A program made the translations under genes and the position numbers. Below are positions 392 through 43,533 of a stretch of 49,729 bases of DNA, piece after piece. Below the pieces are notes generated by a model. The model saw only the letters and a list, made by a program, of their open reading frames with translations. It did no database searches and had not been told where the DNA came from. The stretch's first letter is position 1, and every line of letters starts with the position of its first letter. Origin of the DNA: Candidatus Woesearchaeota archaeon (lineage in GTDB: Archaea; Nanobdellota; Nanobdellia; Woesearchaeales; GW2011-AR9); NCBI GenBank assembly GCA_016203205.1, contig JACQNE010000003.1, positions 1 through 49,729 of the forward strand, given 5' to 3'.

Positions 392-753
392 AGCTCGTTG
401 ATACGGATATCTTTATCGATCTCTTGAGGGGATTTGACCACTCCCGATTATTTTTTGCTGAAAACGAAGAGATCATTTTCTCTGCTATCACTGAAGCAGA
501 ACTATTATCAGGACAACAATGTAAAGACACTGCTGTTCGAGAAAAAGTTCTCCATTTCCTTTCTCAATTTGAGAAAATCACCGTTGACAATCCCCTCGTT
601 CAAATTGCAGCTGATTTTCGGAGAAAATATGGGATAGCCCTTCCTGATGCTATTATCGCCGCATCTGCTTTTGTACATGACGCGACTCTCATCACGCGTA
701 ATATTAAAGATTTTGAGAAGATTCGCGAGATTAGGGTAGAAAAGCCATATTAG
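388..753 (+). CDS. vapC: PIN-domain toxin (VapC-like ribonuclease)
   Basis: MKLVDTDIFID, TEAELL, LPDAIIAASA and TRNIKDF match the acidic residues and C-terminal signature of PIN domains. The start was moved from 301 to the ATG at 388, which couples to vapB. Confidence 0.85.
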   Translation: MKLVDTDIFIDLLRGFDHSRLFFAENEEIIFSAITEAELLSGQQCKDTAVREKVLHFLSQFEKITVDNPLVQIAADFRRKYGIALPDAIIAASAFVHDATLITRNIKDFEKIREIRVEKPY

Positions 754-760
754 GAAAAAG

Positions 761-974
761 CGGACCCGGTGAGACTTTCTCCCACTGTCACTGCCTTATT
801 TTGAGCATCAGCGACTAAGCGAACATAGTGAGCGAAGTCGCTTCGCTGTTCAGATGGCGTGACATCTGGATTTGAACTCACGATCTACAGCTCTCTTTGC
901 TTTAAGCTTAGAAGGCTGTCGCGCTATCTGCCTTCACAACTTATTCAGCTGCATCCAGGCTACGCTACGGGTCC
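761..974 (-). tRNA. tRNA-Arg(UCU) interrupted by three introns (D-loop, 37/38, T-arm)
   Basis: Minus-strand read: acceptor GGACCCG/CGGGTCC is 7/7 paired. D-stem GCGT/GCGC is split by about 26-28 nt. Anticodon arm is ACAGC-CTTCTA[16 nt]A-GCTGT, variable loop AGATC. T-arm is GTGAG-TTCAAAT-[~96 nt]-CTCAC. Discriminator is G, followed by a T-run. No CCA is encoded. Confidence 0.7.
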
Positions 975-998
975 TTAAGTTCTTAAAACTCAAAATAC

Positions 999-1006
999 CT
1001 TTTAAA
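999..1006 (-). promoter_or_regulatory. TATA-box-like element for tRNA-Arg
   Basis: The minus strand reads TTTAAAAG, starting about 25 nt upstream of the predicted tRNA 5' end at 974. Confidence 0.4.
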
Positions 1007-1065
1007 CATTTCGCCATCAATCACCTCAATTCTCTCTCTTCCGGTTGTTTCAGGTCCGTCGTTGA

Positions 1066-1650
1066 TCAAGAAGAACCGATTGTCACTTTTGTGATTATAA
1101 CATCCTGCAAAGGTTGATCTTGGGTATTTCGTGGTGTATTCACAATAGTATCCACAACATCCATCCCCTCAACCACTTTTCCAAAGACCGGATGTTTCCC
1201 ATCAAGAAACGTATTATGAGCTTCATTAATGAAGAATTGTGAACCGCCCGTATTTGGCCCATGATTAGCCATCGAGATTGTTCCTCGAACATTAGATAGT
1301 CCTTTCACGAATTCATCTTTGATCTCATACCCCGGACCGCCCGTGCCCCACATTTTCTTTTTATTCACATCTTTAGTTAACGGGTCTCCTCCTTGGATCA
1401 TGAACTGAGGTATGACTCGGTGAATGCGTGTTCCATCGTAAAACCCTTGCTGGGCCAGATTGATGAAATTCAGAGTTGTTATTGGCATCTTGTCCTCAAA
1501 TAACTCGATCTTTATTGTTCCCGTTGTAGTCTCCAGGATTGCAATTCTATTTTTTGCTGTCATTGTATCAACTCCTCTCAGATAAACAATAGTCAGTATT
1601 ACACCTAATACTAATCCCATTAAAACCAAATTTTTTCTCATGGCAGCCAA
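1066..1650 (-). CDS. cyclophilin-type peptidyl-prolyl cis-trans isomerase with N-terminal membrane anchor or signal
   Basis: FHRVIPQFMIQGGDP, GTISMAN, GSQFFI and HPVFGKV are classic cyclophilin motifs. The N-terminal segment LVLMGLVLGVILTIV is hydrophobic. Confidence 0.9.
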   Translation of the reverse strand: MAAMRKNLVLMGLVLGVILTIVYLRGVDTMTAKNRIAILETTTGTIKIELFEDKMPITTLNFINLAQQGFYDGTRIHRVIPQFMIQGGDPLTKDVNKKKMWGTGGPGYEIKDEFVKGLSNVRGTISMANHGPNTGGSQFFINEAHNTFLDGKHPVFGKVVEGMDVVDTIVNTPRNTQDQPLQDVIITKVTIGSS

Positions 1651-2754: not shown

Positions 2755-4536
2755 TTATGACAGTTTCAACTGTCGATCTCCAGGGTTATCACTTTCATCA
2801 TCATCTGAAAAAGAGTCTTCATTTTCATCTCCTTCTTTCTCTTCGTCAATTTCTTCTTTTCTCTTCTTTCCTTTTTTGTGTGGGGAATGATCTTCTCCCA
2901 GTGATTCTTCCGGCTCATCTTCCGCGCCAATCCGGGCTAGTTCTGCATCATAGTCTGGATTATCTATTCCAATTTCTTCTAATTCGCCTCGCGTGTGCTC
3001 TAAAATAGCATAAAGATCATCCTCTACTTGTTTCTTCTGGATCTCGCTCAGGCCGACGATGCTTTTGAGGGAGTCGGCTACGTGGGGGATATATTTCTCG
3101 ATATAGCCGCGCTTCTTGGATTCTTCACTGATCCTTCTCCTTTTGTTCACGAAAGAAGCCAGCTTCCGGCCGCATTCCTGCAACGCCAATTTCACTTCTT
3201 TAACAATCTCCGGATAATGGGCCAGTGCTTCTTTTGATTCTGATGTAAACGGCACCCATACCGAGGACATGTGCACGACAATTGTACACGGGCCGACGGG
3301 CAGTGAATTTTTGCTTTGTTGCAGGCCGTATAATCTCCACGTTGTTGCTTGGATGGAATTAGTGATCGCGCATGCTCCCTGCTGATATAACAAAGGCACT
3401 CTGTTGGCAAAACGCAGGATCCGCACTGCCGAATCCCCCTCCTGCTCTCCCCCGTAGGCCAGAGCCGCCTCAATGATAAACGGATTCCCGCGGTAGACGG
3501 CGGGAGGCCGTGTGGTTGAACAATAAAATTCCGCATTGATCTCCTTACGCAGGCCTTTTTCCAGCAGATCAGCAGTGATCGGCGAGATGCAGTCTGTCGG
3601 CGGCGCGATGATTTTTGTTTTTTGGATGCCTTTGTGGAGATTCTCCATCAAGTCGCGGTTCAGATTCTTGGTCTTTGTGGAAGGGAGCAGGCTGGCGTTC
3701 GCGCAGATTTCTTTTGCCGTCCCGGCTCCTACCCGCACAAATTCTTCGGTCAGGAATTGCTGCAGTGTTGATGCTTTTGTCGTCTCCAGCATCTTGATCA
3801 GCATCCCCAATTCCACACCGTAGGGGTGCGGCTTAATTTCCCGAGCCTCCGGTGGAAGCTGCTCTGCGGCTCGCGGGAAGATCATTTGGTTTGCTTCCGG
3901 ATTCGTATAGATGATCGTGCAGTGAGGATTAACTACCGATGTTTCTTTCAGATACTCGTCGACCGACTGTCTTCCTTTCAGATAGGCTCCTTCCATGTCG
4001 ATCTCAATACGCGTCCCGTGATCTTTCTCTTCCCATTCCACTTCTTCCTCTTCGACGACATCAGGGCTGTTTGTTTGAGTATTAATCTTCAACTTCATGC
4101 GAATTGCTTTTTTGCCCTCTCCCGTCTTGGACATGATTGTCGCCGGCTTTCCCGTTGTCAGCTGGCCGTATAATACTGCTGCAGAAATCCCGATTCCTTG
4201 CTGCCCCCGGGTCTGGGCGAGTTTATGAAACTTAGAGCCGTACAACAATTTGGCAAAGATCTTGGGAAGCTGCGCTTTGATGATTCCCGGGCCATTATCT
4301 TCGATGACAATCCTAAATCTGGTTTCTCCCAGTTGGATCAATTCTACATTGACCTCGGGGAGGATTCTTGCTTCTTCGCAAGCATCTAAAGCATTATCTA
4401 CTGCTTCTTTTACCGCAGTCATCAACGCTCGTCGGGGATTGTCAAAACCGAGCAAGTGACGGTTCTTTTCAAAAAATTCAGCAATGGAAATCTCCTGTTG
4501 CTTCTGGGCCAACTCTTCCGCTGTCTTCTGCGCCAT
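2755..4536 (-). CDS. top6B: DNA topoisomerase VI subunit B (GHKL ATPase) with long charged C-terminal tail
   Basis: Bergerat-fold motifs [15 protein letters not shown] and [10 protein letters not shown] are present. The last ~70 aa are an E/D/K-rich low-complexity extension. Confidence 0.93.
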
Positions 4537-6684: not shown

Positions 6685-7218
6685 TTATCCAAATAAGATC
6701 TCTTTTTTCTTCCTTTCCAGAAATTGATATACTGTCTTATGCATTGACCCTTGCAGGAGCATGGCCACTGCCTGGCGGGCGATGGCAACATTATCTGTCT
6801 CTCCAACGATCCCGATTGTCTTTCCATAGACAGAGATGGCACAGCCCGTCAATCGTTCGATCTCTTCCCGGCTCTTTCCCCCCGTACCGATTACCCTGCC
6901 TTTCAGCCGTTCCAGCGTATTTCTACTTTTCCCGGCAATATCCTTCATCTCGATCATTTCTAATGCATAATCGGTCTTGTGAAGGAGCATGGCCGTCTTG
7001 GGGTTAAAACCACGGGCAATTGCCCGAACAATTTCTTTAGTGGTATAAAGTTCCACACCGTCATTTCCTTTGATGAGAACATCCCCTTCTGCTGAAATGT
7101 CCAAAACACAGTTGGTCAACTGTTCGATCTCTTTCTTGGTCACGCCATCCTTGCCGATCAATACTGCTACCCGTTCCTGCGGGATCTTTAATTCGTACGA
7201 AAATTCTTCGTGGTCCAT
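6685..7218 (-). CDS. two-KH-domain RNA-binding protein (Dim2/Pno1-like)
   Basis: Two GxxG KH cores are present (IGKDGVTKKEIE and IGTGGKSREEIE). It is translationally coupled (TAATG) to the upstream RIO kinase, a pairing I believe is common in archaea. Confidence 0.8.
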   Translation of the reverse strand: MDHEEFSYELKIPQERVAVLIGKDGVTKKEIEQLTNCVLDISAEGDVLIKGNDGVELYTTKEIVRAIARGFNPKTAMLLHKTDYALEMIEMKDIAGKSRNTLERLKGRVIGTGGKSREEIERLTGCAISVYGKTIGIVGETDNVAIARQAVAMLLQGSMHKTVYQFLERKKKEILFG

Positions 7219-7955
7219 TATTCTGTTTCTGGTGAATTCTTTTTTAAATGTTTGCCCATAATTCTGGCCATTACTTTTTCTGCATCTGCTTTAACACCCC
7301 GCTTCTGGAAATATCGCACAATATTTCCCACGTCCCTCACTAATAATTCCTGTGAGTTCGGCGCTTTTGTCAGCGTTGCCTGTGAGAAATCGATGAAATA
7401 AGGTTTCTCCCGATAATTTAAAATATTAAATGAAGAAAGATCCCCGTGAATCAATCCTTTTTTGTATAATTTTGTCATCCCGCTCACGACCTCATCATAG
7501 AACTTCTTCGGGTTTTGCGGCGGTGCGTCTTTCAGCGGCGGCGCCGGTTCTTCATCCCCGATAAATTCTTCGATAATGATGTGGTTCAGCCAGTGCAGCG
7601 GTTTTGGGGAATAGATACCCGCTTCCACCGCTCGATGCAGGTTTTTGAACTCACGCTGCGCCCAGGCTAAGATGATTTGTCTGCGGTGTTGTTGTAGATA
7701 TTGATACCGTGGATCTTTACGGATGTAATCAAACATCTTCAGGAAATTTGCCGGTTGGATAAAATAAATCTTAACAATCACTTTTTTCTCATCTTTTTTT
7801 GCGACAAAGACGCTGCTTTCCTTGCCTACGGTTAATGGGCTGACTAGTTCATCAAACGCCCCTTTGCTTTCTAATTCGAAAAGTGTTCTATTTGTAAATT
7901 CATCAAAGACACCTTTGATTGTCTTAAAGCGTTCCTGATACGTGAATTGGGTCAT
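7218..7955 (-). CDS. rio1: RIO-type serine protein kinase
   Basis: VGKESSVFVA (P-loop equivalent), LIHGDLSSFNIL (catalytic loop) and IDFSQA (metal-binding loop) are present. Confidence 0.85.
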   Translation of the reverse strand: MTQFTYQERFKTIKGVFDEFTNRTLFELESKGAFDELVSPLTVGKESSVFVAKKDEKKVIVKIYFIQPANFLKMFDYIRKDPRYQYLQQHRRQIILAWAQREFKNLHRAVEAGIYSPKPLHWLNHIIIEEFIGDEEPAPPLKDAPPQNPKKFYDEVVSGMTKLYKKGLIHGDLSSFNILNYREKPYFIDFSQATLTKAPNSQELLVRDVGNIVRYFQKRGVKADAEKVMARIMGKHLKKNSPETE

Positions 7956-43257: not shown

Positions 43258-43425
43258 GTGGGCGTGCCGGAGCGGTCAAACGGGATAGTTCGTTTGGCAA
43301 AGGTGCTAAATGAGTCCATACTCAAGTCGTTTGGGTTGTGAGGCTTCCCTCAGAGGTCGATGAAAAACCGTGAGCCATCTATTGGCTTAGTGCCTACGCA
43401 GGTTCAAATCCTGCCGCCCACACCA
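43258..43425 (+). tRNA. class-II-like tRNA (Ser/Leu-type D-arm) with about 80 nt of intervening sequence; anticodon not resolved
   Basis: Acceptor GTGGGCG/CGCCCAC is 7/7 paired. D-arm is CCGG-AGCGGTCAA-ACGG. T-arm is GCAGG-TTCAAAT-CCTGC. A73 and an encoded CCA are followed by T7. The span is 168 nt against the ~88 nt expected for a class II tRNA. Confidence 0.6.
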
Positions 43426-43491
43426 TTTTTTTATTATGTACATCGCATTCACACTAGGAGGGTTGATAAGGGCAGACTGCCCTTATGCGCG

Positions 43492-43533
43492 GTGCCTACG
43501 CAGGTTCAAATCCTGCCGCCCACACCATTTTTT
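43492..43533 (+). repeat. exact 42-bp duplicate of the tRNA 3' end (T-arm, acceptor 3' strand, CCA, T-run)
   Basis: gtgcctacgcaggttcaaatcctgccgcccacaccatttttt is identical at 43390-43431 and 43492-43533. No matching 5' acceptor strand precedes the second copy. Confidence 0.9.

Follow-up and report, generated by a model that had tools for sequence, protein, structure and literature searches.

Results

Organization of the locus

The window analysed here, 49,729 nucleotides long, corresponds to contig C21; the assembly comprises 743 kb in 37 contigs, with an estimated completeness of 72%. Its minus strand carries, in this order, genes for TopoVI-A, a PPIase and a tRNA. The tRNA gene runs from 974 to 761 and, once three segments are removed from its 214 nt, yields a 75-nt tRNA-Arg(UCU). 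On the plus strand, at 134-753, an 85-aa AbrB/SpoVT-like ORF overlaps an ORF for a 150-aa PIN-domain (VapC)-like toxin; from their sequences these two are a probable VapBC pair, and 8 nt separate its end from the 3' terminus of the tRNA gene.

All elements of the tRNA gene lie on the minus strand. Exon 1 (955..974; tRNA positions 1-19) reads GGACCCG TA GCGT AGCCTGG and holds the 5' acceptor strand, U8, the 5' D-stem strand and the D-loop up to G19. It is followed by intron 1 (928..954), of 27 nt, which is placed at 19/20 in the D-loop by BHB (bulge-helix-bulge) fit, precursor fold and ortholog sites. Exon 2 (909..927; A20 to A37), ATA GCGC G ACAGC CTTCTA, comprises the 3' D-stem strand, the 5' anticodon-stem strand and the anticodon UCU. 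Intron 2 (893..908), AGCTTAAAGCAAAGAG, has 16 nt and is assigned by BHB fit to the canonical position 37/38. Exon 3 (871..892; A38 to A59), A GCTGT AGATC GTGAG TTCAAA, supplies the 3' anticodon-stem strand, the variable loop, the 5' T-stem strand and the UUCAAA of the T-loop. Intron 3 (775..870), of 96 nt, is located by BHB fit and precursor fold at 59/60 in the T-loop, and within it lies a repeat module (793..868) composed of the hairpin CAGATG-TCACGC-CATCTG, then GAA, then AGCGACT...AGTCGCT. Exon 4 (761..774), T CTCAC CGGGTCC G, gives U60, the 3' T-stem and acceptor strands and the discriminator G73; CCA is not encoded at the 3' end of the gene. In the numbering of the pre-tRNA the introns occupy 21-47, 67-82 and 105-200.

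A TATA box, TTTAAAA (1000..1006), is situated at -32 to -26 relative to position 1 of the tRNA and is abutted by a BRE-like element, CGAAATG (1007..1013), recognized by sequence and conserved in the majority of orthologs. Similar TATA boxes precede the other resolved tRNA genes of this genome. Two bases past G73 there is an oligo-T tract, TTTTT (755..759), a likely terminator. The four exons are colinear within 214 nt between one promoter and one terminator, which rules out a split or permuted tRNA gene.

The spliced product is called tRNA-Arg(tct) by ARAGORN, with acceptor, D, anticodon and T stems of 7/4/5/5 bp. A single G-U pair is present in the cloverleaf, in the D stem, and the invariant bases T8, A14, G18G19, T33, G53TTC and C61 are in place. 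The first-pass annotation, made from the letters alone, had proposed on this strand a tRNA-Arg(UCU) gene of 214 nt for a product of about 75 nt, interrupted by three introns of which two are at non-canonical sites; the ARAGORN call, the lengths (974..761 less 27, 16 and 96 nt leaves 75 nt) and the BHB motifs at 19/20, 37/38 and 59/60 all agree with it.

The gene escapes ARAGORN and Rfam

As had been predicted, the intact locus is invisible to the two finders applied. ARAGORN did not call it, either by default or with the -i option, and the Rfam tRNA model missed it at the gathering threshold, at E<=10 and when run over the whole genome; no Rfam family of any kind matched window 600-1150 at E<=10. 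Across the 743 kb, the default ARAGORN run found 3 tRNAs, a run that permitted introns found 10, and Rfam found 7. A second intact tRNA-Arg(UCU), which would have weakened the case for this one, was sought, and no other sequence resembling it occurs in the assembly (72% complete). AGA makes up 20% of Arg codons in this genome (9.6 per 1000), and this gene is the only visible decoder of AGA in the organism, yet ARAGORN and Rfam are blind to it. A default count of only 3 tRNAs in 743 kb indicates that annotation of DPANN genomes under-reports their tRNA sets, and such sets can be misread as host dependence.

Junctions and BHB motifs

Every junction can be drawn in 3-4 sequence-equivalent ways without changing the product, but for each intron one register only sets the cuts in two 3-nt bulges flanking a 4-bp helix. 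In this register intron 1 is cut after G19, with a fully paired central helix (GCCU/AGGC, 4/4), bulges GG^A and AG^A, an outer helix of 2 bp and an inner hairpin GCAGC/GUUGU. Intron 2 is cut after A37, with central helix CUUC/AAAG (3/4, a C35.A mismatch), bulges UA^A and AG^A, the 5-bp anticodon stem as outer helix and an inner helix of 3 bp. Intron 3 is cut after A59, with central helix UUCA/AGAA (3/4, an A57.A mismatch), bulges AA^U and AG^U, the 5-bp T stem as outer helix and a long inner closing helix UGUCAC/GUGACA. The two mismatches both adjoin the 5' bulge. The gene has at its three junctions the two bulges and 4-bp helix by which archaeal BHB introns are recognized, the two single mismatches being a caveat.

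These motifs, which the first-pass annotation had asked to be looked for at each junction, also refine its map. Its D-loop segment of about 26-28 nt is 27 nt long, and its 16-nt intron at the canonical site has a BHB of its own. The length of 96 nt given for the T-arm intron was right, whereas the junction lies at 59/60 (TTCAAA^T) and not after TTCAAAT, with an identical product.

When the 214-nt precursor is folded without constraints, the minimum free energy (MFE) structure (-82.6 kcal/mol) has the acceptor, D, anticodon and T stems in place, and each intron forms a closed side arm. At intron 2 the MFE favours a competing non-BHB pairing, UUCU/AGAG, which we count as a weakness. In every arm the cut follows the sixth base of a hairpin loop of seven bases, the loop of the D arm being the one closed by A14-U20a; this is expected from BHB geometry when the stem of the arm itself serves as outer helix.

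Splicing the locus in silico by brute force and passing the results to ARAGORN gave many spurious solutions, including a false Ser(aga) at this very locus, and for this reason an explicit cloverleaf+BHB solver was written and applied genome-wide to every acceptor/T-arm frame. The readiness of ARAGORN to accept many alternative splice variants, together with the equivalent placements of each junction, could be taken to mean that the gene is real and its intron map different, with shifted junctions or another number of introns. We hold this to be very improbable. In fact, the BHB forms in a single register per intron, the solver ranks the same three junctions best for the locus, the introns of orthologs (see below) vary in length while occupying the same three sites, and the anticodons and arms of the alternative variants are not conserved in orthologs.

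Orthologs, covariation and intron turnover

An intron-aware aligner was run over 80 TopoVI-A loci of relatives, and the same tRNA was recovered at 41 of them, mostly downstream of TopoVI-A and on the same strand. After splicing, ARAGORN recognizes every copy as tRNA-Arg(tct) except one that is truncated. The upstream element CGAAAT(A/G)TTTAAAAG, at 1013-1000 in the window, keeps its distance from the gene in most orthologs, and a T-run follows the discriminator base in most of them as well.

The number of introns ranges from 0 (for example L044 and L061) to 3 (for example L002, L005, L017 and L032), at sites 19/20, 28/29, 37/38 and 59/60; the shortest has 13 nt and the longest about 200. Among the 64 ortholog introns, 81% have a BHB score at or above the 95th percentile of a null of random sites of the same length, and the low scorers are mostly misplacements by the aligner. 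An apparent T-loop site at 56/57 in L005, L032, L047 and L073 was rejected as an aligner error: the intron there is really at 59/60, in a TTCGAAT loop and with a 4/4 helix. The BHB helices themselves covary, GCCT:GGGC being replaced by GTCT:AGAC or GGAC at 19/20 and TTCA:TGAA by TTCG:CGAA at 59/60.

Covariation is equally clear in the exons. Across 31 spliced orthologs, pairing holds in 98.6% of cells, and compensatory double changes occur in 11 of the 21 base pairs, among them 5 of the 7 acceptor pairs, which link exon 1 to exon 4 across all introns. None of 500 shuffles did as well, and with the partner shifted by one column pairing falls to about 50%. That the cloverleaf is a chance assembly of fragments, with no gene behind it, has in its favour the failure of the standard tRNA finders and nothing else; it would require 21 base pairs together with the invariant bases, synteny in about 40 genomes and the compensatory changes to be fortuitous, so that its probability is negligible and covariation has already refuted it.

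The closest relative, L002, whose TopoVI-A is 94% identical, has exons 1 and 2 identical to those described here. Its introns, of 26, 42 and 40 nt, occupy the same three sites and are unrelated in sequence to ours, which implies that introns are replaced far faster than exons change. The ortholog series, with 0-3 introns at four fixed sites, is thus a natural experiment on intron gain, loss and replacement.

Other tRNA genes of the genome

The remaining tRNA genes were searched by taking acceptor stem, U8 and T-arm as anchors and passing the candidates to the cloverleaf+BHB scorer. At least 21 introns were located in 13 resolved tRNA genes, about 1.6 per gene in a sample that is small and biased. 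Besides Arg-UCU (C21, minus strand), three introns are found in Arg-GCG (contig C9, minus strand, ~7250-7400 in plus-strand coordinates, L222); they measure 20, 15 and 43 nt, lie at 19/20, 37/38 and 59/60 as in Arg-UCU, and all three of their BHB central helices are 4/4. Two introns each interrupt Arg-TCG (C27, minus strand; 19/20 and 37/38), Ala-GGC (C10, 32584-32760, plus strand; 19 nt in the D-loop and 84 nt in the T-loop), Gln-TTG (C6, minus strand; 23 and 77 nt), Ser-GCT (C32, 10043-10265, plus strand; 55 and 86 nt) and Leu-TAG (C16, minus strand). One intron is present in Leu-GAG (C25, 33768-33918, plus strand), in Glu-TTC (C28, minus strand) and in Ile-GAT, His-GTG and Trp-CCA (various contigs), and none in Pro-GGG (C10). 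Most tRNA genes here hold one to three BHB introns, frequently one at 59/60. About 19 tRNA frames are visible in all, well below a full set even at 72% completeness, and a census by promoter, 5' exon and acceptor produced no further resolved tRNA genes.

By eye, the D-loop introns of Arg-GCG on C9 (ATATCCACAAGATAAGGCAT) and Arg-TCG on C27 (ATAGGAACAAATAAGGCAA) are clearly related, and intron 1 of Arg-UCU has AATAAG and AAGGCAG in common with both. This suggests that the intron at 19/20 may be common to the Arg isoacceptors by descent or conversion. At two tRNA genes, one in the window at 43258-43533 (plus strand) and the other Leu-TAG on C16 (minus strand), the gene's own T-arm and 3' acceptor end are repeated 102 nt further on.

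A module common to T-loop introns

The hairpins of the 96-nt intron had been noted in the first-pass annotation as belonging to that intron. They are indeed present; they are not its own, however, but a conserved core common to other tRNA genes. The T-loop introns of Arg-TCT, Arg-GCG, Ala-GGC and Ser-GCT have in common CAGATGTCACGYCATCTGAA, then CGAAGCGRCTTCG and AGTCGC, and end in GAAAG; in BLAST comparisons among these four introns E ranges from 6e-6 to 6e-9. That of Arg-GCG contains hairpin 1 of the module, and on C27 a further copy of the module lies at the contig edge inside another T-loop intron. In relatives a 59/60 intron bearing the module interrupts Ile-TAT, Ser-CGA, Ser-GCT and Arg-TCT. 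Homologous introns in non-orthologous tRNA genes, one mark of a translocatable intron family, are thus found here, and the 96-nt intron is one of a set of related 59/60 introns that have most likely spread between tRNA genes.

Hairpin 1 covaries (CAGATG/CATCTG, CAAATG/CATTTG, GAAATG/CATTTC), with 93.6% of cells paired and double changes in 3 of its 6 pairs in a small sample, and its loop TCACGY is nearly invariant. The formal covariation test within the module covered hairpin 1 only. In intron 3 the MFE structure skips hairpin 1: UGUCAC pairs with the distal GUGACA as closure, and AGCGACU/AGUCGCU forms. For the middle of the module a single consensus fold could not be derived, since a local CGAAG/CTTCG and a long-range AGCGAC/GTCGCT compete.

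The module also occurs outside tRNA genes. On contig C3, at 3752-3803 (plus strand), there is a stand-alone copy with no tRNA or 5S context, and Rfam matched no family over C3:2500-5000. On C20 (plus strand, ~6762-7065, L231) two tandem copies lie just downstream of a 5S rRNA gene, in antisense, each after a T-run and ahead of a degenerate duplicate, about 27 nt long, of the 5S 3' end. The same kind of arrangement adjoins 5S genes in three other genera (L206, L208, L213); it could have arisen as a scar of integration or by tandem duplication. That the module is found outside tRNAs, and in both orientations, points to a repeat at the DNA level. In total, 13 of 61 genomes of the same family carry the module, with 1 to 19 copies each, and L002 has an unrelated 40-nt intron at 59/60, a patchy distribution that goes beyond vertical descent. 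The genome with 19 copies, G033, has some of them in composite arrays (e.g. L216, L218, L225, L228). These arrays consist of dense units of about 135 nt, in each of which a CAGATGTCACGYCATCTGAG hairpin is joined to a GGGGTTGATAAGGGG motif; their irregular spacing does not resemble that of CRISPR. The stretch between Leu-TAG on C16 and the second copy of its T-arm contains ATGGGGGTTGATAAGGGCAGAC, similar to a motif within these arrays.

Other identities for the module were considered and rejected. Introns can encode C/D box sRNAs, of which the Haloferax tRNA-Trp intron is an example; here no Rfam match was obtained at E<=10, and the CUGA and UGAUG-like words vary between copies of the module. 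Group I or group II introns are likewise discarded, with no Rfam match and lengths of 16-96 nt. A scan of genome contigs for CAGATGTCNNNNCATCTGAA returned mostly bacterial matches, arising by chance, and was of no use.

The route of transfer might be reverse splicing or recombination at the common T-loop sequence. More broadly, the 59/60 intron may be a small mobile RNA/DNA element whose active spread would explain the very high intron load of these Woesearchaeota, about 1.6 per resolved tRNA gene alongside a plain alpha-type EndA, a tentative proposal to which we give slightly less than even odds. In such an element the fixed 3' end YGAAAG would pair with the nearly universal UUCR of the T-loop, so that any tRNA T-arm could supply the other half of the BHB; insertion into many tRNA genes would be harmless because the host EndA would excise the element, and the same element would also land beside 5S rRNA genes.

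The repeated nature of intron 3 bears on whether the gene is alive. Its core is found outside tRNA genes in either orientation and two of the BHB central helices are imperfect, as might be the case in a decaying pseudogene that had suffered three inactivating insertions, the largest of them a repeat element, and is no longer spliced. Such a pseudogene, though, would not be expected to keep intact exons that covary with those of orthologs, a conserved promoter and terminator, and every insert exactly at a BHB-capable site. It would moreover be the sole tRNA-Arg(UCU) of a genome with heavy use of AGA, and the module also lies within Ala, Ser and a further Arg tRNA of this genome, which cannot all be dead. 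We therefore consider decay unlikely in the extreme, if a little less so than a different intron map, and the locus is very probably a working arginine tRNA gene interrupted by three spliceable inserts.

Splicing machinery and proposed maturation

One EndA gene was identified, encoding 231 aa (C13:21471-21731, minus strand; ORF L001:1474-2169, minus strand), with domains PF02778 and PF01974 (the latter at 1.9e-28). In the PDB it is closest to the N. equitans alpha subunit 3IEY_A (1.3e-34) and the M. jannaschii alpha4 EndA 1A79 (3e-33). The alignment with 1A79 has no indel in the catalytic domain, and the six extra residues that precede the catalytic His in the N. equitans subunit are absent. 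The protein carries an N-terminal Lys/Glu-rich extension of about 60 residues that M. jannaschii EndA lacks, and across relatives the length of the ORF varies from 179 to 263 aa. Exactly one EndA gene was found in each of the 15 genomes searched (our own and 14 relatives, 9 of the 15 being at least 90% complete), and the single-subunit enzyme is thus a trait of the lineage. The 'L3 loop' (PMC5829648) was sought in this EndA and not found. The alpha4 class is described as strict (PMC5829648); for an EndA of this class free of inserts, efficient cleavage of imperfect motifs is not guaranteed.

The ligase RtcB was not found in the assembly (72% complete). Of 13 genomes searched, 11 have it, among them each of the 8 with a completeness of 90% or more, and its absence here probably reflects the incomplete assembly.

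Taken together, the most probable reading (about 0.9) is a functional single-copy tRNA-Arg(UCU) gene of a member of Woesearchaeota (DPANN), with three introns that are predicted to be spliced by EndA and of which the T-loop one comes from a family that has most likely spread between tRNA genes. Transcription would start from the BRE/TATA promoter, ~26-39 nt upstream, and stop at the T-run. The 214-nt precursor would fold into a cloverleaf whose D, anticodon and T hairpins each bear an extra arm, and in each arm four exon bases of the loop would pair with the 3' end of the intron as the 4-bp central helix. The outer helix would be provided by the stem of the arm itself for introns 2 and 3, that of intron 1 being of 2 bp only. 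The single alpha-type EndA would then cleave each motif within its two 3-nt bulges, after G19, A37 and A59; RtcB would ligate the four exons, and CCA would be added. Expression, cleavage sites and ligation are in this scheme predictions from sequence.

Discussion

Multi-intron tRNA genes are already known in archaea, and the Arg-UCU gene adds to them. In Thermoproteales above all, tRNA genes with as many as three BHB introns are well documented, with three-intron examples in tRNA-Glu(UUC) of Pyrobaculum calidifontis and tRNA-Pro(UGG) of P. islandicum (PMC4390854, PMC8450103); P. calidifontis holds the record with 71 introns in 46 genes, and the mean for Thermoproteales is 0.84 (PMC8450103), against about 1.6 per resolved gene in the small sample from this genome. 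The first-pass annotation had drawn this comparison, and the kind of gene is indeed known there; the host, however, is a DPANN archaeon, since the closest relatives of the TopoVI-A beside the tRNA belong to Candidatus Woesearchaeota/Nanoarchaeia MAGs, many of them from groundwater. The likeness extends to the number of introns (no more than three), to the canonical, D-arm and T-arm sites, to the predicted removal by EndA and to the failure of gene finders. The differences concern the enzyme and the geometry. Thermoproteales have a heterotetrameric EndA with a Crenarchaea-specific loop, whereas the enzyme here is a single alpha-type EndA without insert relative to M. jannaschii, and unlike in Thermoproteales the introns lie at the equivalent place of each hairpin, which for intron 1 supposes a D-loop closed by A14-U20a. 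That so many non-canonical introns coexist with such an insert-free enzyme bears on the published relation between the architecture of the endonuclease and the sites of introns. One intron in each of three arms is likewise known from a eukaryotic nuclear tRNA gene, where the enzyme is eukaryotic and there is no shared descent.

Within DPANN, Kaneta et al. (2018) described increased tRNA gene disruption in members with an alpha4-type EndA bearing the 'L3 loop', noted that predicted tRNA sets were incomplete, which implies disrupted genes still to be identified, and urged manual curation (PMC5829648). One Woesearchaeota genome was analysed in that study, with tRNAscan-SE defaults, and the Arg-UCU gene, the ortholog series and the intron family were not encountered there (PMC5829648). 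In the literature compared we did not meet the ortholog series, the intron density, its pairing with an insert-free EndA or the T-loop intron family.

Translocatable tRNA introns were described in Thermoproteales by Fujishima et al. (2010), a work considered here as cited in PMC4390854. As far as that account goes, the two cases are alike in that related sequences occur in non-orthologous tRNA genes, implying gain by transfer between genes. They differ, to the same extent, in that the family described here is bound to 59/60, has a conserved hairpin with an invariant loop, and also occurs outside tRNAs, in antisense downstream of 5S rRNA genes and in arrays. The T-loop intron module is in this respect a candidate mobile intron outside Thermoproteales.
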